From contig JBAYJP010000006.1 of NCBI GenBank assembly GCA_041665025.1, forward strand, positions 5,440 through 69,439: a stretch of DNA of 64,000 nt. Direction: 5' to 3'. A model generated the notes under the pieces. The model was not told the DNA's origin. It made no database searches and saw only the letters and a program-made list of their open reading frames with translations. Origin of the DNA: Candidatus Magasanikiibacteriota bacterium (GTDB lineage Bacteria; Patescibacteriota; Patescibacteriia; Magasanikbacterales; UBA922). This document shows positions 2,974 to 57,881 of the stretch, in pieces. Position 1 is the stretch's first letter. Every line of letters begins with the position of its first letter. Both the position numbers and the translations under genes were made by a program.

Positions 2974-3002
2974 GTGGTGACGAATTACAACCCATCACCT
3001 GT

Positions 3003-3105
3003 CCTCTTCCCTTAAAAAAGGAAGAGTAACCATCAGCGAACACAAAACTTCTCTACAACGTTCTCCCTCCCTTTTTAAGGGAGGGAGCCAGAGGGTGGGT
3101 TGCTC
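3003..3105. repeat. GC-rich REP-like hairpin cluster (family A): CTCTTCCCTTAAAAAAGGAAGAG, then CTCCCTCCCTTTTTAAGGGAGGGAG followed by CCAGAGGGTGGGTTGC.
   Basis: Perfect inverted repeats read directly. The same hairpin-plus-tail architecture recurs at 5397-5437, 6291-6330, 13586-13660, 14707-14737 and 34641-34802. Confidence 0.7.
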
Positions 3106-4521: not shown

Positions 4522-6735
4522 TTATTCAAGATGAACACTCGTTTCCCACTCCTCCACTTTCTCTCTCAAACTTGGATACTCTCCAAAATCAATACCTCTT
4601 GCCATATCTCGCGCTAGTTTAATCAAGTCATGATCTTTGAGCGTGGCTAATTTGAAATTCATCATACCACTCTGTGCTGTGCCATACACTTCTCCAGGCC
4701 CACGTTGGTCTAGATCATACTCTGCCACTTTGAATCCATCAGTTGTTTTTTCAAAATACGATAATCGTTCTTTTACTTTGTCTGTGTCACTGTCAGTAAA
4801 CAAAAAACAATACGACTGGTGAAAACTTCTGCCGACTCGTCCTCTAAACTGATGTAACTGAGCCAAACCAAACCTCTCAGCACCTTCTATCATCATCACA
4901 CTTGCATTGGGAATATTTACGCCAACTTCCACAACTGACGTAGAAACTAAAATGTCTAACTCCCCTGCTGCAAATTTTTTCATGGTCTCATCTTTTTCTT
5001 GTGATTTCATTTTTCCATGTAAATACCCAATTCTTAGATCAGGAAAAACATTCTTAGATAATTTCTCATATTCTGCGAGTACACTCTTTTTTTCAAATGT
5101 AATTGGTAATTGGTAATTGGTAATTGGAATTTTATTTGTATCTTGTCTCTTGGAATTTATTTCTTCTATTAGTGGGCATACAACAAATACTTGCTTTCTA
5201 CGCTTCACTTGTTCGCGTATAAACGCATACGCCTTGTCTCGATTGTGTGGATCTACGAGCCGTGTCATCACTGGCTTTCTATCTTTTGGCATTTCACGGA
5301 TAATAGACAAATCCAAATCACCATACAAAGTCAGAGCAAACGAACGTGGGATAGGTGTCGCAGTCATTGAAAGGAAATGGGGTGAAAGTCTGTCGTCCTC
5401 CCCTCTCTTCGTAAGAGAGGGGCCGGGGGTGAGTTGCGCCGCCGAAGAAATACTTTTCTCTTTTAAAATCTTCCTCTGCTCTACCCCGAACCGGTGCTGT
5501 TCGTCCACAATCACCAAACCCAAATTCTTAAACTGCACATCTTCGGTAAGTAAGGCATGCGTCCCCACAATAACATCAACCTCTCCTTTTGCGATTTGGT
5601 CTATCATTTCTTTTTTTTGAGAAATTTTAGAATTGTTTCGAAATTCGAAATTCGAAATTCGAAATTCATTACGCGTTTGAATCCCCAACCTAACTTTATC
5701 TCCCAACAACTTCACAAGCGACTCATAATGTTGCACCGCCAAAATCTCTGTCGGCGCCATGATGACTCCCTGATATCCATTAAGTGCGGTATTATAGAGC
5801 GCCATTGCCGCCACAACTGTTTTACCAGACCCAACGTCCCCTTCTAGCAAACGATTCATCGGCTCTTTCTTTTCCAAATCTTGCAAAATTTCCCATGCTG
5901 AAACTTTTTGATCTTTCGTGAGTGCAAAAGGAAGCGAATGTACAAATTCTTTAATGGCGTCTTCTTGAAATGAAAGTTGAGGAGCAACAGATCTTTTTAT
6001 ACTTTGGCGTATCATTTCAGCACGAAGTTGCATGACAAATAGTTCATCAAACTTAAGCCGTCTTTGCGCGTATTTCAATTCATCTTGGCTTTCAGGAAAA
6101 TGTATTGCTTTCAAGGCCTCTTGCAACGGCATAATATCTGCCTGCTCCAATAAGTCATCGGGCAACCATTCCTTTATTTCATTTCTAACCTCAATAATCT
6201 GGCTCATCAAAAATCTAATCTGCTTGTGCGTTATACCGGTTGTCAATGAATACATCGGCACTATTCGAGCTGTGTGCGTACTCAAGAGCGTTCCCTCTCC
6301 TTGTAGGAGAGGGTCAGGGTAAGGTCTCTGCTTCACCTTTTCATATCCAGGAGAAACCATCTCTAACCCAAACATATCTGACTTTACTTTCCCAGATAAA
6401 TACACACTATCACCCACATGCAGGGCTTTCGCAATAAACGGCTGACCAAACCAAATAATTCGTAATTGCCCTGAATCATCGGCAACTAAAGCTTCAGTTA
6501 TCATTTTCCGTTTCCGCGGACTTCGTTTATTTGAGATAAGTTCAATTTTTCCTTGTATCGTAACATCCATCCCCTCTTGCAAATCTTTAATTGAAACAAC
6601 GGAACTGTAATCTTCATAGCGAAAAGGAAAATAAAACAAAAGATCCTCGACTGTTTCCACACCGAGATGTTTTAGCCGCGTTGCAAGGATTTTCCCCACG
6701 CGGTTTAATTGTGTAATAGGGGTAGTCAAATTCAT
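4522..6735 (-). CDS. recG: ATP-dependent DNA helicase RecG
   Basis: Wedge/OB N-terminus; helicase motifs GDVGSGKT, DEQHRFGV and MTATPIPRS. It contains four in-frame repeat insertions, described in the findings. Confidence 0.9.
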   Translation of the reverse strand: MNLTTPITQLNRVGKILATRLKHLGVETVEDLLFYFPFRYEDYSSVVSIKDLQEGMDVTIQGKIELISNKRSPRKRKMITEALVADDSGQLRIIWFGQPFIAKALHVGDSVYLSGKVKSDMFGLEMVSPGYEKVKQRPYPDPLLQGEGTLLSTHTARIVPMYSLTTGITHKQIRFLMSQIIEVRNEIKEWLPDDLLEQADIMPLQEALKAIHFPESQDELKYAQRRLKFDELFVMQLRAEMIRQSIKRSVAPQLSFQEDAIKEFVHSLPFALTKDQKVSAWEILQDLEKKEPMNRLLEGDVGSGKTVVAAMALYNTALNGYQGVIMAPTEILAVQHYESLVKLLGDKVRLGIQTRNEFRISNFEFRNNSKISQKKEMIDQIAKGEVDVIVGTHALLTEDVQFKNLGLVIVDEQHRFGVEQRKILKEKSISSAAQLTPGPSLTKRGEDDRLSPHFLSMTATPIPRSFALTLYGDLDLSIIREMPKDRKPVMTRLVDPHNRDKAYAFIREQVKRRKQVFVVCPLIEEINSKRQDTNKIPITNYQLPITFEKKSVLAEYEKLSKNVFPDLRIGYLHGKMKSQEKDETMKKFAAGELDILVSTSVVEVGVNIPNASVMMIEGAERFGLAQLHQFRGRVGRSFHQSYCFLFTDSDTDKVKERLSYFEKTTDGFKVAEYDLDQRGPGEVYGTAQSGMMNFKLATLKDHDLIKLARDMARGIDFGEYPSLREKVEEWETSVHLE
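5397..5437. repeat. Family A GC-rich hairpin, in-frame inside recG: CCTCCCCTCTCTT CGTA AGAGAGGGG then CCGGGGGTGAGTTGC.
   Basis: It translates through on the minus strand as ...AAQLTPGPSLTKRGEDDRLS... in the variable region before MTATPIPRS. Confidence 0.65.
6291..6330. repeat. Family A GC-rich hairpin, in-frame inside recG: CCCTCTCC TTGTA GGAGAGGG then TCAGGGTAAGGTCTC.
   Basis: Translated as ...KQRPYPDPLLQGEGTLL... It contains a GTAG tetranucleotide. Confidence 0.65.
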
Positions 6736-7030: not shown

Positions 7031-7097
7031 CACCTTTGGGGACTAATGTATACATACACACAGACGCATAAATGGTACGTCCCCACAAAATAATACA

Positions 7098-7124
7098 TAA
7101 AAACCCGCCGCGACGGGTTTTTAT
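7098..7124 (+). terminator. Rho-independent terminator after tRNA-Arg
   Basis: AAACCCG CCGCGA CGGGTTTTT. Confidence 0.6.
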
Positions 7125-7221
7125 GTATTATTTTGAAAAATCCGAATAAAAAAATATTGCTTAAACAACAGACAAACTAGAGGATTTGCTAAACAAATTC
7201 CATAGATTCTATATATAAAAT

Positions 7222-7775: not shown

Positions 7776-7800
7776 AACCCTCTAATATAGAGGGTTTTTA
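7776..7800 (+). terminator. Rho-independent terminator
   Basis: AACCCTCT AATAT AGAGGGTT followed by TTTA. Confidence 0.65.
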
Positions 7801-9530: not shown

Positions 9531-10925
9531 ATGGATTCAGAAAACAGACAAGCCCAGGAAACAAACCTCCCCATTATTACTCTTGTTGGGCGTGCAAACG
9601 TAGGTAAATCAACACTCTTCAATAAACTAGTAGAAGAACACAAGGCGCTTGTATCGATAATACCCGGCACAACACGCACCGTAAATGAAGGCGATATATT
9701 ATGGAGAGGCGTGTATATCCATACGATAGACACGGGGGGGATAGATAATCTCGAAAATGAACGATTTTCCAAAGAAATTGTAGAACAGTCCGAAGGTGCT
9801 CTCAAACGCGCAGACATCATTCTTATGGTTTTCGACGCGCAAGTAGGCATTCTCCCCCAAGAAAAAGAACTTGCCCGAACATTATTAAAAAAATATCGAG
9901 CAACAAAAAAAATTATACCCGTAGCAAACAAAATAGACAGCAAACGAATTGAAAATAAGCTTCATGCAGAAGAATTTTTGTCTCTGGGGTTGGGCCAGCC
10001 ATTATATATCTCAGCGACAAACGGAAGTGGTGTGGGTGACCTGCTTGATTATGTGTACAAAGAACTACGGAAGCTCGGCAAACGGCCTAAGCAAACTAAC
10101 AAAGCATTGACAACCGATGTGCGCGTGTCTATGTTTGGCAAACCAAATGTAGGAAAATCATCGCTCTTCAACAAAATTGTTGGTCTCGAGAAAGTTATTG
10201 TAAGTGATATTGCACACACAACCCGTGAACCATTTGATACGCAAGTGGAATATACCGAAGGCAAGAAAAAATATACTATTACATTTGTCGACACGGCAGG
10301 CATTCGTAGAAAAGCACATGTGAGCGGTATGCTTGAAGAACAGGGAATTAAAAAAAGTATCCAAAATATTGAAAAATCAGATATTATTTTACTTGTGCTT
10401 GATGGGAGCCAACCATTCTCTTCCCAAGATATGCAGCTTGGCGGACTTATTGAACGCAGAAGCAAAAGTGTTATAATTCTTATCAACAAATGGGATCTGA
10501 CCGAAGATAATAGCGACGCGTACCGCAACCAAGTAAAGGCAATGACGTATGCCCATTTCCCCCATCTCGATTTTGCACCTATTTTATTTGTAAGTGGCAA
10601 GACGGCATATCGTGTTCAACAGATATTTCCATTGATCGTCCAAATTGCGCAGGCCCGTACAACTGAAATTCCCACAGACAAATTGGATGACTTCCTAAAA
10701 CGCGCCATGAAAACACATAGGCCTACCAAGGGAAAAGGCAAAAGTATCCCCGTCATTTGGGGAATAAAACAAATCAATTCAAATCCTCCTGTGTTCGAGT
10801 TATTTTTAAAACCACGAACTTCAGTACATGGATCATACTTCAAATATTTGGAGCACAAACTTCGAGAAGAATTCAACTTTTTGGCAACTCCAATTGTCAT
10901 CAAAGTGACTAAGATGAAAAAATAA
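9531..10925 (+). CDS. der: Ribosome-biogenesis GTPase Der/EngA
   Basis: Two tandem GTPase domains (GRANVGKSTLFN, GKPNVGKSSLFN; DTGG/DTAG; NKxD) and a KH-like C-terminus. Confidence 0.9.
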   Translation: MDSENRQAQETNLPIITLVGRANVGKSTLFNKLVEEHKALVSIIPGTTRTVNEGDILWRGVYIHTIDTGGIDNLENERFSKEIVEQSEGALKRADIILMVFDAQVGILPQEKELARTLLKKYRATKKIIPVANKIDSKRIENKLHAEEFLSLGLGQPLYISATNGSGVGDLLDYVYKELRKLGKRPKQTNKALTTDVRVSMFGKPNVGKSSLFNKIVGLEKVIVSDIAHTTREPFDTQVEYTEGKKKYTITFVDTAGIRRKAHVSGMLEEQGIKKSIQNIEKSDIILLVLDGSQPFSSQDMQLGGLIERRSKSVIILINKWDLTEDNSDAYRNQVKAMTYAHFPHLDFAPILFVSGKTAYRVQQIFPLIVQIAQARTTEIPTDKLDDFLKRAMKTHRPTKGKGKSIPVIWGIKQINSNPPVFELFLKPRTSVHGSYFKYLEHKLREEFNFLATPIVIKVTKMKK

Positions 10926-12762: not shown

Positions 12763-12900
12763 ATCTCAATTTACAAATTTTCAATTTTCAAATATGTTAT
12801 AAAGTCAAAATTAATCTTTATCGTAAATTTATCCGGCGTAGTCCCGCCTTGGTCGGGACGAAGACGGAATCTTGATTCTTCAATTTTATATTTTATTCCT

Positions 12901-13581
12901 ATGTTCTCACCTATACGAATCAAACAGTCCATTGTCCTCACGCTGTTCATCTTCCTCGGCTTTCTCGCCATGCAAGTTCCTTTTTCACAAATCATTGGCT
13001 CCAGTGTTAAATTTAGTTTATTCGATTTTTACGGACCTATCGTAGGCGGATTTGTCGGATCAGTATGGGGGCTTATTACGGTCATAGCAATGCAGCTCAC
13101 AAACTGGGCATGGCATGGATTTACTATTGACGCCGCTACCGCTATTCGATTTTTTCCAGTCCTTTTTTCAGTTCTCTATTTTGCTCGCAAGTCAAAATCA
13201 ATACTCGCCGTTCCCATCCTCTGTATGATTGCATTTTGGATGCACCCAGAGGGACGTATTGCATGGACCTATGCGCTCTATTGGTTTATCCCTATCGTGG
13301 CATATTTTTTTCATGATTCACATATATTTGCTCGTGCGCTCGGCACGACGTTTACTGCGCATGCGGTTGGCGGCGCTCTATGGATTTGGGTGTTTAACAT
13401 GAAAGCAGGCATATGGATTAGTCTCATCCCAATAGTTTGGAAAGAACGCGGACTCATGTCAATAGGTATCATGCTTACATTTTTGCTCTTCAACTTTGTC
13501 TTACGTACCATCAATGAAAAGACAAATATCAAACTCCCCTTCCTCAAACTCCAACCAAAATTCAGCTTACATACAAAATAA
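12901..13581 (+). CDS. Polytopic membrane protein with about 6 TM helices. It may be an ECF-transporter S-component-like protein, lying upstream of the folC-like gene.
   Basis: Hydrophobicity pattern only. The functional guess rests on size, topology and neighbourhood. Confidence 0.35.
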   Translation: MFSPIRIKQSIVLTLFIFLGFLAMQVPFSQIIGSSVKFSLFDFYGPIVGGFVGSVWGLITVIAMQLTNWAWHGFTIDAATAIRFFPVLFSVLYFARKSKSILAVPILCMIAFWMHPEGRIAWTYALYWFIPIVAYFFHDSHIFARALGTTFTAHAVGGALWIWVFNMKAGIWISLIPIVWKERGLMSIGIMLTFLLFNFVLRTINEKTNIKLPFLKLQPKFSLHTK

Positions 13582-13585
13582 TTTT

Positions 13586-13660
13586 CCCTCCCCCTACAAG
13601 GGGGAGCCAGAGGGGGTCTTCTAAAATTAAGACCCCACCTCGCCTCCCCTTCTAGGGGAG
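13586..13660. repeat. Family A REP-like cluster of three hairpins (CTCCCCCTACAAGGGGGAG, GGGGTCTT..AAGACCCC, CTCCCCTTCTAGGGGAG)
   Basis: Intergenic, between the membrane protein and the folC-like gene; shares the CCAGAGGGGGTC tail. Confidence 0.65.
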
Positions 13661-13673
13661 TTTTCCTGTTACT

Positions 13674-15050
13674 ATGACATTTGACCAAGCATACAATTAC
13701 ATCCTCTCTCTCAACAATCTTCCGCGCAAAGAATACATGGCCGACCCTCGCCACTGCGGATGGTATCTTAAGCGCCTCCAGTTTTTCTTGGATATTTTAG
13801 GGAACCCCGAACGCAAAATTCCACACTATATTCACGTAACCGGCACAAGCGGCAAAGGATCGGTGACTGCCTATATGCATTCTATACTTCATGCAAGCGG
13901 GAAAAAGGTAGGCTCGACCTACTCCCCTCATCCTACTATTATCACTGAGCGATGGAAAATTGGGAACAAATTTATGACAAAAAAAGAGTTTGTCCAATTA
14001 GTGGAATATATCAAGCCAAAACTTGATGAATACACGGCAACTACTCCCTATGATGCGCTGTCCTTCTTTGAAATCACTGAAGCAATCGGTTTTTTGTATT
14101 TTGCAAAACATAATGTCAAATGGGCAGTTTTAGAAGTTGCCTGCGGAGGACGTTATGATGCAAGTAATATTATTCCGTGGAAAGATATCGCTGTTATTAC
14201 AAATATAGGGTTAGACCATGTCGGGCTTATTGGTAATAATAAATCAGAAATTGCATACGAAAAAGCTGGCATCATAAAACGTGGGTGTACATTTTTTTCT
14301 ACTGAAAAAGATAAGAGGATTATCAATGTATTAACTCGGGAAGCAAAAAAAATATTAAATATTAAAGATATTAGGATATTAAATGATATTAAATATCCCA
14401 ATATCACAATATCAAAATATCATAATATCCCAATATCTGGAACCAACTTTACATACAAAGATGCCATATATCACCTGCCCACAATAGGTACGCATCAAAT
14501 ACAAAATTCAATATTATGTATCGAAATTGCCAAACATCTTCATATTCCGCAACATGCTATCAAGCGCGGACTCTCACAAGTCAAACAGCCTCTTCGTATG
14601 GAAATCGTTTCTCACAATCCTCTCGTCATCCTTGACGGCGCACACAATCCAGACAAGATGAGGACGACTGTTGAGACTACAAAAACATTGCAAAAACAAA
14701 AAAATATCCTCCCCCTAGGGGGAGGCGAGAGGGGGTCAAAAAATATCCATCTGGTCGTCGGCTTCTCTGGTGACAAAAACATTCCCAACATGGTTAAACA
14801 ACTTGCCACTGTCAAACCAAAATCAATTGCGGTGACACGCAACACAACAAATCCATTTCGTAAAGTCGCAGACCTACAACTTGTTGCTAGGCAATTTAAA
14901 AAATTACTTCCAAAATCAAAAATTAAACTCTTCCTCGAACCATCTAAAGCATTATTGTGGACAAAAAAAATAGCCAAGACACATGATATCATCTTGGCTA
15001 CTGGATCAATATTTGTAAGTGGAGAACTACGAGGTCAAACAAATGGATAG
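13674..15050 (+). CDS. folC: Folylpolyglutamate synthase / dihydrofolate synthase (Mur ligase family)
   Basis: Mur-ligase P-loop HVTGTSGKGS and overall FolC-like layout. It carries an in-frame AT-rich low-complexity insert (14349-14438) and an in-frame family-A hairpin (14707-14737, PLGGGERGS). Confidence 0.7.
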   Translation: MTFDQAYNYILSLNNLPRKEYMADPRHCGWYLKRLQFFLDILGNPERKIPHYIHVTGTSGKGSVTAYMHSILHASGKKVGSTYSPHPTIITERWKIGNKFMTKKEFVQLVEYIKPKLDEYTATTPYDALSFFEITEAIGFLYFAKHNVKWAVLEVACGGRYDASNIIPWKDIAVITNIGLDHVGLIGNNKSEIAYEKAGIIKRGCTFFSTEKDKRIINVLTREAKKILNIKDIRILNDIKYPNITISKYHNIPISGTNFTYKDAIYHLPTIGTHQIQNSILCIEIAKHLHIPQHAIKRGLSQVKQPLRMEIVSHNPLVILDGAHNPDKMRTTVETTKTLQKQKNILPLGGGERGSKNIHLVVGFSGDKNIPNMVKQLATVKPKSIAVTRNTTNPFRKVADLQLVARQFKKLLPKSKIKLFLEPSKALLWTKKIAKTHDIILATGSIFVSGELRGQTNG

Positions 15051-15052
15051 GA

Positions 15053-18000
15053 CTACGGAAGCATTATTCGAGCTCCCGTATATCCATTTATATATACGTA
15101 TTCCCCATTTCTAACTTTCGTTACTTTCAAAACTGCGGAGTTATTATAGTGCTCTACACGAAGAGAACCAATAAACCAACTGAAAATACTGTACTCATAC
15201 ACTGCGTGGTCACTATACGTTACCTGGACTTTGCCAAACCATGTAGGTGTAACTGATACCATATAACGTTTGGCCAACTGTACATCAAACGGATCCAATT
15301 TAAATAAAAAAGGATGTGTACCGTTCTGGCTTATGGTATTGACTTCATCTACATATTTGTCTCCGTCATTATCTCTTTTATCGCCTTTAATCTCTATTCC
15401 TCGCGCCGGAATTTCATCATCAAAATCTAAATTATTATTTACGTAACCAGCTGGTGCAGAATTACTGCATACAGAGGTTAAAACAATTTTACTTCCGAGC
15501 CCATCGTCATCTCTATCTTCATAAAAATTCTTTAGCTGATATACATTAGGATCGTGATCATTACAGTCTGTAGACGCAGAGGCACCATCGTTGTCAGCAT
15601 CATTGTCATTATGATCATTACTATTGGTTACGTATCCCGCAGGTGTATGTGCCGAACACAAAGTCAGCGTGTCGTTTGGATTACCCAAGCCATCGTAATC
15701 TAAATCATGATAATATATGACAGGTGTTGAAATTTGTGGATTATAATCATCACAATCAGCGCTAGCATCTACTCCATCATTATCACGATCATACGCGTGT
15801 TCATCGCACGCGTCCCCTATTCCATCTTGGTCAGTATCATTTTGATCAGGGTTATATATTTCTAGACAATTGTCTACTGAATCAACAACAGCGTCATTAT
15901 CCTTGTCAAAATCATTTGCATCATCATGATTTGTGACAAATCCATCCAAAGGTACCTCTGAACATATTTCCATGATATCATGTATCGAGCCCAGCCCATC
16001 CTGATCATAATCCCGATAATAAGTAACAGGGCCTAAAACAGCCACGTCATGATCATCGCAATCAACACTCATTTCCACATTATCGTTATCATAATCATGG
16101 TCATTAACATCATCAGAATTGATTACGAAACCTTCAACCAACGTGCATGACTGCTGTAATGTATCAGATCCCCTACCATCACCATCTACATCTTGATAAT
16201 AGTTAATCGGTCCCAAAATAGCAGGATTATTATCATTGCAATCTGTGCCAGTATTAACATTGTCATTATCAAAATCATTGTCATTTCTATCATCGACGTT
16301 CGTAACATAACCAGGAACTACCATGCAGGACTGTCGCGCTGATCCAAAACCCAATCCATCTCCATCAACATCTGCATAATAAAATTGTGGACCTTTAACA
16401 TCAAAATCACGATCATTACAATCTAAAGCTGTGTCAATATTGTCATTGTCATAATCATTATCATTTGTGTCCAGTTCGCTTGAAGCAGTGAGAACATACG
16501 TACCAGAAGCGGAACACATGATCTGTGGTTCACCAAATCTTTTTCCATCGCCATCTGCATCACGATAATAATTAATGGGACCTAAAACAGTGTTATTGTT
16601 ATCATCACAATCAATACCCGTATTCACATTATCATTATCGTGGTCATTATCATTTTGATCACTAGAATTGGTAACACGACCAGAAACTACTGCGCAAGAC
16701 AGTACTGCTTCTCCAGATCCGAGTCCATCGCCGTCTAGATCAAGATAGTATGATTGTGGCCCACGAATATTGTAGTCACGGTCATTACAGTCTATGAGAG
16801 AAGAAATCGTATCATTATCAAAGTCATTGTCATCCACATCTTCTACATTGGTAACATGGCCCGCAAGTACAGTACATGACTGTCGTGCTTGGCCAAATCC
16901 CTTTCCGTCTCCATCAGCGTCAATATAATAATTTACCGGTCCTAAAACGGTATTATTAGCATCATTACAATCAACACCAATACTGATGCCATCATTATCG
17001 AAATCGTTGTCATTCACGTCATTTGAATTAGCAACATAGCCCGTCGGCGCTGCCAAGGTACTTATCATGCTTGAAACATGAGAACCAAGTCCGTCATTAT
17101 CTAAATCCTGATAATATACGGCGGTGTGCTTGCTTATATACGTGGCGGTAGAAGCGTCATGCGCAATATAAATAATTGATCCGCCAATCTCATCTCGTCT
17201 AATCAAAAATCCTTCACGTCCATCACCCGGAACATTCGTATACGCCCGTACAACTTTATTAGTTTTTGGATCGACCTCTATCAAAAGATTTACGCCGTCA
17301 TCATACAAAATAAAAAGAGTGCCGGTATCTTCATTGAAGAACATGTCAGAAATGTTTGAGTTTGCCAAGCCCGTGAAACCATTTGCATTCAATGTAATAT
17401 AACCTCTTGATGTAAAAATACCTGTATGATTTACATCAAGATCAAAAACATAAATAAGGCCATCATCTGTTGTAGTTGCTCCTCCAGGGGTAGGCGCTCT
17501 TTGCACGCCAACATAAAATAACCCGCCAGATCCGTAAATACTGTCAGGAACACTGGAAGGTAAAAAAGCATTTGGGACAAAAGCCGCGCCTTCAAGTCCG
17601 GAATTAGAAGGGGTATTCAAATGATAACTTAAATCCCATGATTTCCCTGTTTTTACTCCGCGTGACCAATCAAACTGAGAGATTGAGTCAGGATTTTCCT
17701 CACCTAAATATATAAAATTACTATGTGGATCAGTAATTACCAGGGCTTCAAGATCTGCATTAGCCGTAGCATTGGGTGGTTCTCTCTTTATATTTCTCCA
17801 TTCTGTTTCTACTACCCCATCTTTGTTCATCTTTGTCAAAACCCCTCCATCACTAATAGTAAATAATTTTTCCGATACACTATTCCACGCCATACCACTT
17901 GGTTCATAAGGCGCGGTTGGAGTGATGCGATCACTAAGGCTAGAAGAAGCTGGCCAATTCGTCGGACTTACGGCCAAAACAAAATTACTAGGGAACAATA

Positions 18001-34640: not shown

Positions 34641-34802
34641 GCCCCTCTGAGTTTGTTCGAGCAACCCACCCTTAATCCCTCCTTTAAAAAGGGAGGGAAA
34701 GACGATTTAACAAACTCCTCCTCCCTTTTTAAGGGAGGAGGTTGGGAGGTGGGTTGCACGGACAATGCAAGGGAAAATAAAAAGAAGATAGGTTGCTCGA
34801 AC
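34641..34802. repeat. Family A REP-like cluster: two oppositely oriented CTCC(T)CCCTTTTTAAGGGAGG hairpins nested inside a GTTCGAGCAACCCACCC ... GGGTGGGTTGC ... GGTTGCTCGAAC outer inverted repeat
   Basis: Intergenic, between aspS and the M23/LTD gene; read directly from sequence. Confidence 0.65.
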
Positions 34803-39427: not shown

Positions 39428-40144
39428 TTATAAACGTGGACGATTGTTCCGATCACGATTCCACATGGGTGGATTATATATAATATAACGTTGTATATTA
39501 TGAAACGCCGTTTCATTTCGGATAATATTATCATAAAACGACCGTTGCCATTTGAATTGTGGAAAACCAATTTCGTGGATACGTTTCGACGTGGTCGTTT
39601 TCAATGCGCCGATAATATTTGATAATGATAATATGTTGTATGAACCCGGTGCATGTAGGGACAGGTCTAGACCTGTCCCTACACCACGTTCCATGTCAAT
39701 CATCATATTGAGGTCATTGCCGCGACCTGCCCCTACGGACCCCGCATTATCCAAATCCATTGCAATACCACCGGCATGACCCACCCCTACACCATCGGCA
39801 CAATCCATATCAATATCATTATTCAAATCCATTGTAATATTATTTCCATTGACGACCGTATCGTCACATATTTCCAATATCCCATGCACATGGTTCGGCA
39901 TAACCACAAACCCGTGTGATCGTATATACGAATATTGGTGCGACAACCATTCCCATTGGCGATATAGGACCGTGCCCACACGATTCACGCACATTACACC
40001 ATTATATACACCACCAAAAAATGAAATCCTACCCTCTACACAGATCGTAATAAAATAACACCTATTATTTTTATAATCAAAACCCCGTAAACGATTATTT
40101 TTTCTATTATTCCTCCTATACATATACGCATAGTATACATGCAA
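39428..40144 (-). mobile_element. REP-associated tyrosine transposase (RAYT, IS200/IS605-like Y1/HuH family) carrying an in-frame insertion of about 85 aa
   Basis: YFITICVEGR...VVMPNHVHGIL (HuH) ... FKWQRSFYDNIIRNE (catalytic Tyr helix) ... YIIYNPPMW. The order and spacing match E. coli YafM-type RAYTs, apart from the insert between the HuH motif and the Tyr helix. Confidence 0.75.
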
Positions 40145-41333: not shown

Positions 41334-41366
41334 AAAAAAAATCTCCCAAATTGGGAGATTTTTTTG
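41334..41366. terminator. Bidirectional terminator AAAAAAATCTCCCAA-ATT-GGGAGATTTTTTT directly 3' of the giant gene
   Basis: Perfect 9-bp stem flanked by an A-tract and a T-tract. Confidence 0.75.
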
Positions 41367-57822: not shown

Positions 57823-57881
57823 CACAATAAAACTCTCCGTTATCCCGGAGAGTTTTATAATCTGTAATATCTGTCGGCAAA

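Follow-up and report, generated by a model that had tools for sequence, protein, structure and literature searches.

The folC gene and its GC-rich insert

The window analysed here is a 64-kb stretch (64,000 nucleotides) of the genome of an uncultured member of the Magasanikbacteria, a candidate-phyla-radiation (Patescibacteria) lineage. At 13674..15050 on the plus strand it holds an intact open reading frame (ORF) of 458 amino acids, a folC-like gene for a protein of Mur ligase fold. This study concerns two segments of that ORF, a GC-rich hairpin with its tail (14708-14737) and an AT-rich tract (14349-14438). Both are read through in frame, as ...KNILPLGGGERGSKNIH... and ...KKILNIKDIRILNDIKYPNITISKYHNIPISGTNF..., the GC-rich one being translated as ILPLGGGERGS.

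Judged by its sequence, the product is FolC, a predicted folylpolyglutamate/dihydrofolate synthase. It scores 261 bits against the FolC profile TIGR01499 (NCBIfam; cut-off 162.65), carries the Pfam domains Mur_ligase_M and Mur_ligase_C, and has the Thermotoga FPGS/DHFS 1O5Z as its best solved relative (E = 3e-45). The P-loop GTSGKGS and the DGAHNP motif are both present and fall in invariant columns of the orthologue alignment, and the AlphaFold2 (AF2) model has a mean predicted local distance difference test score (pLDDT) of 84.9. The DNA sequence itself is well supported; the sample was assembled twice independently, giving ENA k141_30512 (compared over 21.3 kb) and Logan SRR6484324_138094 (over 7.8 kb), and both show 0 mismatches to the window. 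A preliminary description of this DNA, made from the sequence alone, had proposed a folC-like gene carrying an in-frame hairpin, and this identification holds, with the profile score above its cut-off and the ORF read through.

An 11-nt direct repeat, AAAAAATATCC, borders the GC-rich element on both sides, its two copies (14699-14709 and 14738-14748) being offset by 39 nt. The downstream copy encodes the native ...KNIH..., and deleting 39 nt leaves ...TLQKQKNIHLVVGF (...QKNIHLVVGF), which is the basal loop length of the orthologues. The distance from DGAHN to GFSxDK is 48 amino acids here vs 32-38 in about 60 of 80 orthologues. The segment is missing from most of the orthologues aligned and from 1O5Z, whose alignment with FolC is gapped exactly at the insert, so the earlier view of it as an insertion stands. 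The stretch past DGAHNPDKM..T.K.L is hypervariable in an alignment of 30 orthologues. In the AF2 model, the insert follows helix 326-341 and precedes strand 358-362 in the C-terminal Mur-ligase domain, and pLDDT falls below 50 solely at residues 347-353, inside the insert, and 249-252. The insert sits in a predicted surface loop.

A three-arm repeat in the window and in related genomes

The GC-rich segment begins with a perfect 18-nt palindrome, CCTCCCCCTAGGGGGAGG (14708-14725), for which 0.02 matches are expected in shuffled sequence. The hairpin previously placed at 14707-14737 is therefore real and in frame, although its palindrome starts one base to the right. It is followed at 14726-14737 by a tail, CGAGAGGGGGTC, to which a tail at 13607-13618, CCAGAGGGGGTC, is related; the window has 3 near-matches to the tail where chance would give 0.12, a count that none of 100 shuffles attains. 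This tail had been noted as a shared appendix of the hairpin, and it does recur, but it is better read as a third, reverse-Hoogsteen arm. In class II intrastrand triplexes, a pyrimidine arm is followed by a purine arm and then by a 3' reverse-Hoogsteen arm (Holder et al. 2015, NAR 43:10126, PMC4666352). The folC copy has this same domain order on one strand, CCTCCCCCT / AGGGGGAGG / cga / GAGGGGGT (14708-14736). Because the third arm mirrors the purine arm, a single DNA strand could fold into a reverse-Hoogsteen triplex, with its third arm running antiparallel to the purine arm. Read from 14728 as (A)GAGGGGGT, the third arm fits at 8/9 positions, or 8/8 without the outermost.

As written, the folC copy has a first loop of 0 nt and a second loop of 3 nt (the ITxF search criteria are a stem of 6-15 nt and loops of 1-6 nt). 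When folded as DNA, its central CTAG opens to give a 7-bp stem with a 4-nt loop, sizes that fall inside those limits, at -7.1 kcal/mol. The same stem recurs with a 3-nt first loop in five related loci (L012, L014, L035, L042 and L057), in four of which (L012, L014, L035 and L057) the third arm is GGAGGGGGT. Compared with the canonical form, the folC copy has lost its first loop and one G of the third arm.

The motif is repeated in the window (Table 1), and its copies resemble each other in architecture, not in sequence. Each has a 5' arm made up solely of C and T, which a short loop separates from its complementary arm of A and G; a linker of 1-5 nt then leads to a G/T-rich stretch that mirrors the purine arm. 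All of the window's pyrimidine/purine hairpins with a stem of at least 7 nt (9/9) bear this mirror arm; in 60 dinucleotide shuffles of the window we found a mean of 0.03 hairpins and 0 motifs. The nine copies in 64 kb clearly exceed chance. Three of them are intragenic, one in folC and two in recG (4522..6735, minus strand), and both motif-bearing insertions of recG are absent from the L001 and L004 orthologues (loci related to the window are given L numbers here).

Table 1. Motif copies, arms of the folC copy and AT-rich repeats in the window. Fractions are triads that fit the mirror rule.
Feature	Position	Strand	Fit or remark	Purine arm to third stretch
Intergenic motif, CTCTTCC stem	2992..3026	-	7/7	
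Intergenic motif, CTCCCTCCCTT-TTT-AAGGGAGGGAG-CCA-GAGGGTGGGTT	3063..3101	+	11/11	AAGGGAGGGAG to GAGGGTGGGTT
Motif within recG, antisense	5400..5435	+	10/10; part of 17-aa in-frame insertion	AAGAGAGGGG to GGGGTGAGTT
Motif within recG, antisense	6293..6325	+	8/9; part of 13-aa in-frame insertion	
Intergenic motif, CTCCCCCT-ACA-AGGGGGAG-CCA-GAGGGGGT	13588..13617	+	8/8; closest relative of folC copy	AGGGGGAG to GAGGGGGT
Second intergenic motif, CTCCCCT-AGA-AGGGGAG-GCGAG-GTGGGGT	13632..13660	-	7/7; inverted orientation	
Imperfect inverted repeat, left GATATT-type vs right AATATC units	14366..14438	+	DNA fold -12.3 kcal/mol	
Coding tandem repeat, six 8-nt units AATATCNN, encodes YPNITISKYHNIPIS	14392..14437	+	TRF	
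folC copy, pyrimidine arm CCTCCCCCT	14708..14716	+	identical 9-mer in L012, L014, L035, L042, L057	
folC copy, purine arm AGGGGGAGG	14717..14725	+	Watson-Crick partner of CCTCCCCCT, without separate loop	
folC copy, linker CGA (second loop)	14726..14728	+	cga also in L012 and L014 copies	
folC copy, reverse-Hoogsteen (third) arm GAGGGGGT	14729..14736	+	mirrors purine arm, G as G, A as T or A	AGGGGGAGG to (A)GAGGGGGT
Intergenic motif, half of divergent pair	34666..34698	-	7/7	
Intergenic motif, partner in divergent pair	34717..34755	+	11/11	AAGGGAGGAGG to GGAGGTGGGTT

Upstream of folC, the intergenic cluster at 13586-13660 had been assigned to the same hairpin family. The family is indeed shared, but the cluster consists of two inverted triplex motifs whose third arms pair with each other (fold of 13580-13665: -22.8 kcal/mol, z = -5.3); what looks like a second hairpin of this doublet is merely the pairing of the two third arms. 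A further hairpin ending in CACCT, downstream of the motif, was also considered as part of the element and rejected, as it accompanies only some copies (3063, 6293 and L004). All nine window motifs fall within 3-35 kb; no motif was found in 35-64 kb of the window, nor in the 9 kb of contig past its end.

To see the family at a larger scale, we applied a purpose-written pattern finder to the window and 83 related loci (1.40 Mb in total). Of these loci, 80 are folC regions of Magasanikbacteria, each taken with 10-kb flanks, and the other three are non-duplicate loci obtained earlier. The search gave 43 motifs, or 42 distinct copies with 31 different 5' arms. Typically the three arms are 9 nt each and the two loops 3 nt each, which makes a unit of 33 nt. 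Over 134 strand-views, the best third-arm mismatches are bimodal, with 0 in 33, 1 in 10 and a second mode at 4-5. When tails were swapped among copies, a perfect fit was obtained in just 2.8% of trials, and since swapped tails so seldom fit, the third arm covaries with the stem. The triads of the 42 distinct copies are G·G (253), T·A (70), A·A (44) and other (10), and an A of the purine arm faces T or A at its mirror position in 114/118 cases. About 22 of the 43 motifs are located in long ORFs, split evenly between sense (11) and antisense (11), where a motif counts as intragenic if a stop-free frame extends at least 50 codons to both sides.

The stem type of the folC copy also reaches well beyond this group. 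With exact arms (CCTCCCCCT / AGGGGGAGG / GGAGGGGGT), it is present in at least 120 contigs from metagenomes, whose GC content of 36-70% points to many phyla. In the metagenome loci with this stem (L091-L170), flanks and loops vary, gaa being the commonest first loop. Among the Magasanikbacteria loci, L035 carries a same-stem motif at 10218-10250, in frame as FLPLLGGGQEGV within an ORF of about 760 codons whose position corresponds to topA of the window. L045 has two CCCCCCTC/GAGGGGGG motifs, inverted relative to each other (10702-10730, plus strand; 10778-10804, minus strand), both in frame within the middle domain of its folC.

We consider it likely that 14708-14737 belongs with the class II intrastrand triplex motifs, the BoxC / PIT / TM kind, and is fixed in frame in folC. 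The defining feature of the repeat would then be structural, namely three arms and a purine-motif fold (G·G-C, T/A·A-T). Such motifs have been described from E. coli and other bacteria (PMC4666352; BoxC and PIT elements also in Hoyne et al. 2000, as cited there). In E. coli K-12, the 23 copies of BoxC / PIT / TM_ECO are always intergenic and often form inverted pairs; their pattern is CCCTCNCCC N3-6 GGGNGAGGG N3 GGGNGAGGG, with TTA or CCG as second loop and no linked transposase (PMC4666352). The E. coli motif forms a stable triplex in vitro, as seen by circular dichroism (CD) and nuclear magnetic resonance (NMR), and is associated with rearranged loci (PMC4666352). The copies in our loci agree with it in the three-arm order and the class II purine motif, in the lengths of arms (about 9 nt) and loops (about 3 nt), in having G/C-rich arms of CCCTCTCC type, and in their multicopy status with inverted pairs and without an associated transposase. 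Second loops in the window include both E. coli types, CCG (5400) and TTA (34698), and near-matches to TM_ECO are found at 6293 (CCCTCTCCT-TGT-AGGAGAGGG-TCA-GGGTAAGGT), in the L004 folC copy, and in L038 and L057.

There are also differences. The host here belongs to the candidate-phyla-radiation Magasanikbacteria, not the Proteobacteria or Cyanobacteria; there are 31 arms in 42 copies in place of a near-identical consensus; and about half of the Magasanikbacteria copies lie inside genes, translated in frame, vs 23/23 intergenic in K-12. The folC copy itself (CCTCCCCCT/AGGGGGAGG/GAGGGGGT, with no first loop and a shortened third arm) misses the TM_ECO consensus and is intragenic, and we reject strict TM_ECO or BoxC membership for it. 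A literature search on such motifs inside candidate-phyla-radiation genes found nothing relevant.

Origin of the folC copy and competing explanations

The loop that holds the insert is expanded in about 20 of the 80 orthologues, and in three different ways. Triplex motifs occupy it in L004, L042, L044 and L057, with a decayed one in L008; other GC-rich hairpins are found in L001/L011, L010, L009 and L035; and the third type consists of AT-rich tandem repeats, mostly of 8-nt period, so that three units preserve the frame. The three closest genomes (FolC 82-84% identical) each carry a different element in this loop, and there are at least four independent triplex motifs across the phylum. The motifs of L004 and L042 agree in subtype and position, intermediate lineages being without a motif there, a pattern that seems to fit independent gain and repeated loss equally well. 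These comparisons mark the FolC helix-to-strand loop as a permissive, repeatedly hit site.

Several details of this loop can be added. The AT-rich repeats occur in L038, L048, L013, L016, L012/L014, L074, L082 and L008, examples of 8-nt period being CAATTCAA, CACTACAT, CTTACACA and GCACAAAA. A GC-rich two-tier hairpin family (CGCCTGCC...GCGTTGC...GGGCAGGC) is present in L010 and in L001 (10995-11070), where a 12-nt direct repeat, AATATCCCAATA, brackets it with a spacing of 55 nt; the L011 loop is identical to that of L001. L004 and L006 come from the same sample, ERZ27249449, in which the window genome coexists with L004; in ungapped alignment columns, about 84% of residues are identical between the FolC proteins of L004 and the window, whose loops hold different elements.

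Where might the folC copy have come from? Among the copies in the 73 kb of visible host genome, the related loci and the metagenomes, its nearest relative is the intergenic motif at 13588, which has the same 9-nt pyrimidine arm and 8/9 of the purine arm, and shares with it the string AGAGGGGGTC. This agrees with the pairing drawn in the preliminary description. In both window copies an A precedes GAGGGGGTC, where 89/89 same-stem metagenome copies and five same-stem copies in Magasanikbacteria loci have G. The suggestion of local spread made there finds some support in this, but both loops of the two copies differ and their flanks share only the motif. Local spread from the upstream copy into folC is plausible on these sequence comparisons. 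A more specific version, in which the intergenic doublet lying 1.1 kb upstream served directly as template for the folC copy, for instance through template switching or gene conversion in the course of repair, strikes us as possible but doubtful. The 11-nt direct repeat would then be the footprint of the event, and such a repeat is indeed improbable by chance; among mismatched flank pairs, about 0.1% show a match of at least 11 nt (about 4% once 43 tests are allowed for). The arms, the AGAGGGGGTC string and the shared A that is G elsewhere all speak for such copying. However, other copies of the subtype may exist outside the 73 kb covered, and the folC stem type also occurs in five other Magasanikbacteria genomes. 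The first loop is ACA at 13588 and missing in folC, the linkers are CCA and CGA, and the flanks have nothing in common outside the motif. Moreover, the loop holds differing elements in the two closest relatives and unrelated ones in the expanded orthologues, and being hit by such varied elements it would attract or tolerate insertions wherever the donor lies.

We also looked for signs of conventional mobility. Target-site duplication as a family trait was rejected, since the longest flank words of the 43 copies match a shuffled-pair control; a MITE (a miniature transposable element with inverted repeats) was rejected in the same way, there being no fixed-length target-site duplication and flank matches that follow the control distribution. 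No transposase-like Pfam domain was found in the 20 scanned window ORFs or in the precomputed annotation of the remaining genes, and likewise no RAYT or Y1-transposase in the 64-kb window (the same 20 ORFs, with precomputed Pfam for the rest). We know of no transposase for intrastrand-triplex repeat elements.

It is also conceivable, although in our view unlikely, that the motif forms a G-quadruplex or a plain hairpin instead of a triplex, the third arm being kept merely as a G-run. The purine and third arms do give at least four G-runs in many copies, such as GGGAGGGAGCCAGAGGGTGGG at 3063. Yet a quadruplex does not need the complementary pyrimidine arm and leaves unexplained the mirror match of A to T or A, and copies without four G-runs, for example 5400 (AAGAGAGGGG / GGGGTGAGTT), keep the mirror. 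The E. coli relative was shown by CD and NMR to be a triplex (PMC4666352).

A selected RNA or translation signal in folC, such as a ribosome pause, mRNA stabiliser or attenuator, is less likely again, and we would give it very little weight. The folC motif is in the sense orientation and would form an RNA hairpin. However, the even sense/antisense split of the intragenic copies argues against a role at the RNA level, there is no T-run past the stem, unlike in the true terminators at 7778, 41342 and 57833, and most FolC orthologues are without the hairpin. RNA does not form purine-motif triplexes (PMC4666352). An Rfam search of 12800-15200 gave no match at the folC element, its sole match being a miRNA model at the upstream doublet (E = 0.84, 21 bits vs a gathering threshold of 99).

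Finally, an ancestral Gly-rich loop selected at the protein level, or an assembly artefact, with the palindromy a coincidence, is barely credible: the loop does vary in all orthologues and short palindromes can confuse assemblers, but a perfect 18-nt palindrome is hardly expected in shuffles, the motif recurs 8 further times in the window, the segment is missing from basal orthologues and 1O5Z, two assemblers agree base for base, and independent metagenome-assembled genomes (MAGs) have in-frame motifs in the same loop.

Some points do weigh against our interpretation of the folC segment as a triplex motif. The triplex is deduced from covariation and from the published E. coli relative, and G-quadruplexes are an alternative fold open to the G-rich arms. 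In folC the copy is degenerate, with no separate first loop and a third arm one base short (8/9), and as a plain hairpin it is unexceptional (z = -1.4; 18 of 200 shuffles fold equally well). Its 11-nt direct repeat is found only at folC among the 43 copies and tells little about how the family moves. ORF membership of the copies rests on stop-free frames, and some GC-richer loci gave two candidate frames.

On our reading, folC gained 39 nt in frame when a copy of the motif became fixed there, an 11-nt direct repeat of the target being included in that length. The copy would be tolerated there for several reasons, namely the surface loop, the pyrimidine-only and purine-only arms that are free of stop codons, and a canonical unit of 9+3+9+3+9 = 33 nt, a multiple of three. 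The stop-free arms and the 33-nt unit may help to account for the survival of copies inside genes more generally. The peptide LPLGGGERG would be a by-product without a function of its own, and the insertion presumably neutral. The element, if active at all, would fold in vivo and act on DNA, through fork or polymerase stalling or local instability, and not through RNA or protein.

Other repeat families and the AT-rich tract

Rickettsia palindromic elements (RPEs), reportedly described by Ogata and colleagues in 2000, are said to be selfish elements that insert in frame into protein-coding genes. They are about 100-150 bp long, with a conserved sequence and no triplex third arm. Our motif resembles them as a dispersed palindromic repeat found in frame in housekeeping genes, adding an extra surface peptide and preserving the protein, at both intergenic and intragenic sites of a reduced genome; the folC copy likewise leaves its ORF intact upon in-frame insertion. 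It differs in its size (about 30-36 nt, with a 39-nt footprint in folC) and in conserving architecture; we set the two apart by description only. RPEs are mentioned in PMC10969869 and PMC1779305.

REP and REPIN sequences lie outside genes, carry GTAG as a conserved 5' feature and are found together with a RAYT gene (PMC3116915, PMC2817692). They share with our motif the short GC-rich palindromes, the high copy number and the inverted doublets (here 13588/13660 and 34698/34717). In contrast, the copies we inspected have no GTAG at the foot of the hairpin (flanks ...atat|CC, ...cgtt|C and ...cgtc|C), a mirror third arm is missing from REPs, and three of the nine copies in the window are intragenic. 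Fungal mitochondria offer another case of GC-rich hairpins that spread in an AT-richer genome, in the form of mobile GC clusters and double-hairpin elements. They are similarly short and sometimes in frame in coding regions, but they are organellar, belong to unrelated sequence families and lack the triplex architecture.

To our knowledge, intrastrand triplex motifs have been linked to genome instability, with neither their function nor their means of spread established. Previously intergenic curiosities (BoxC / PIT / TM), they would now be represented by the same architecture in an ultra-small, uncultured lineage, where a third arm that tracks 31 stems in 42 copies provides unusually clean comparative evidence for a conserved three-stranded fold. 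With about half of the copies translated in housekeeping genes (folC, recG and the ORF at the topA position), they also form a natural set of filled and empty sites for studying the origin of such motifs. The essential enzymes of these reduced genomes seem to absorb the motifs in surface loops, much as Rickettsia proteins do RPEs, and the resulting lineage-specific Gly/Pro-rich loop inserts can mislead alignments and gene calls in candidate-phyla-radiation MAGs. Perhaps the triplex repeats of Magasanikbacteria are even an active, structure-driven source of loop variation, entering and being replaced at permissive loops of essential enzymes, as the turnover of elements in the FolC loop might suggest; we offer this as speculation that is rather improbable as it stands. 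If true, it would make non-B DNA structure, in place of a transposase, the agent that steers the repeated in-frame remodelling of coding sequence.

The AT-rich tract of folC is a separate matter. According to Tandem Repeats Finder (TRF), 14392-14437 holds 5.8 copies of a unit of period 8, and 14350-14394 repeats with a period of 7-10. Since GATATT units are the reverse complement of AATATC units, the stretch 14366-14438 doubles as an imperfect palindrome (z = -3.8; 0 of 200 shuffles fold as well). The first half of the tract (KKILNIKDIRILN) is common to L001 and L004, and the second half is the AATATCNN array, which consists of six 8-nt units in the window, units of 8+8+7+7+8 nt in L001 and of 7+7+7+8 nt in L004. 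Relative to the orthologues, the tract adds about 4-9 residues, and the low-pLDDT residues 249-252 are the tip of a beta-hairpin that it encodes in the AF2 model. It is a lineage-specific coding microsatellite, in which only combinations of units that keep the frame survive, and represents slippage-type expansion of the 7/8-nt coding repeat, apart from the triplex element. The earlier description of an AT-rich insert was right to see a low-complexity repeat, but only part of the tract is an insert, the first half being shared with the closest orthologues; the tract does not belong to the hairpin family, and its 7/8-nt repeat occurs in both closest relatives too. The initial interpretation is supported in part, as to a dispersed repeat copy lying in frame, and misread the tail, the cluster and the AT-rich tract. 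AATATCC as a genome-wide target or element end was considered and found no support; it occurs 16 times on the plus strand vs about 8 expected, and within the window the 8-nt array is found only in folC.

Other palindromic features of the window can be listed briefly. Terminator-like hairpins at 7778-7794, 41342-41358 and 57833-57852 consist of an A-run, a stem and a T-run, readable on both strands, and are set apart from the triplex family by their lack of a third arm. An intergenic AT-rich hairpin with a 22-bp perfect stem (CAAAATAATACATAAAAACCCG...) lies at 7086-7135. A 30-nt perfect palindrome, TGTAGGGACAGGTCTAGACCTGTCCCTACA, at 39654-39683 is unrelated to the triplex family and lies inside ORF 39428..40144 (minus strand), which encodes a protein without a Pfam match.

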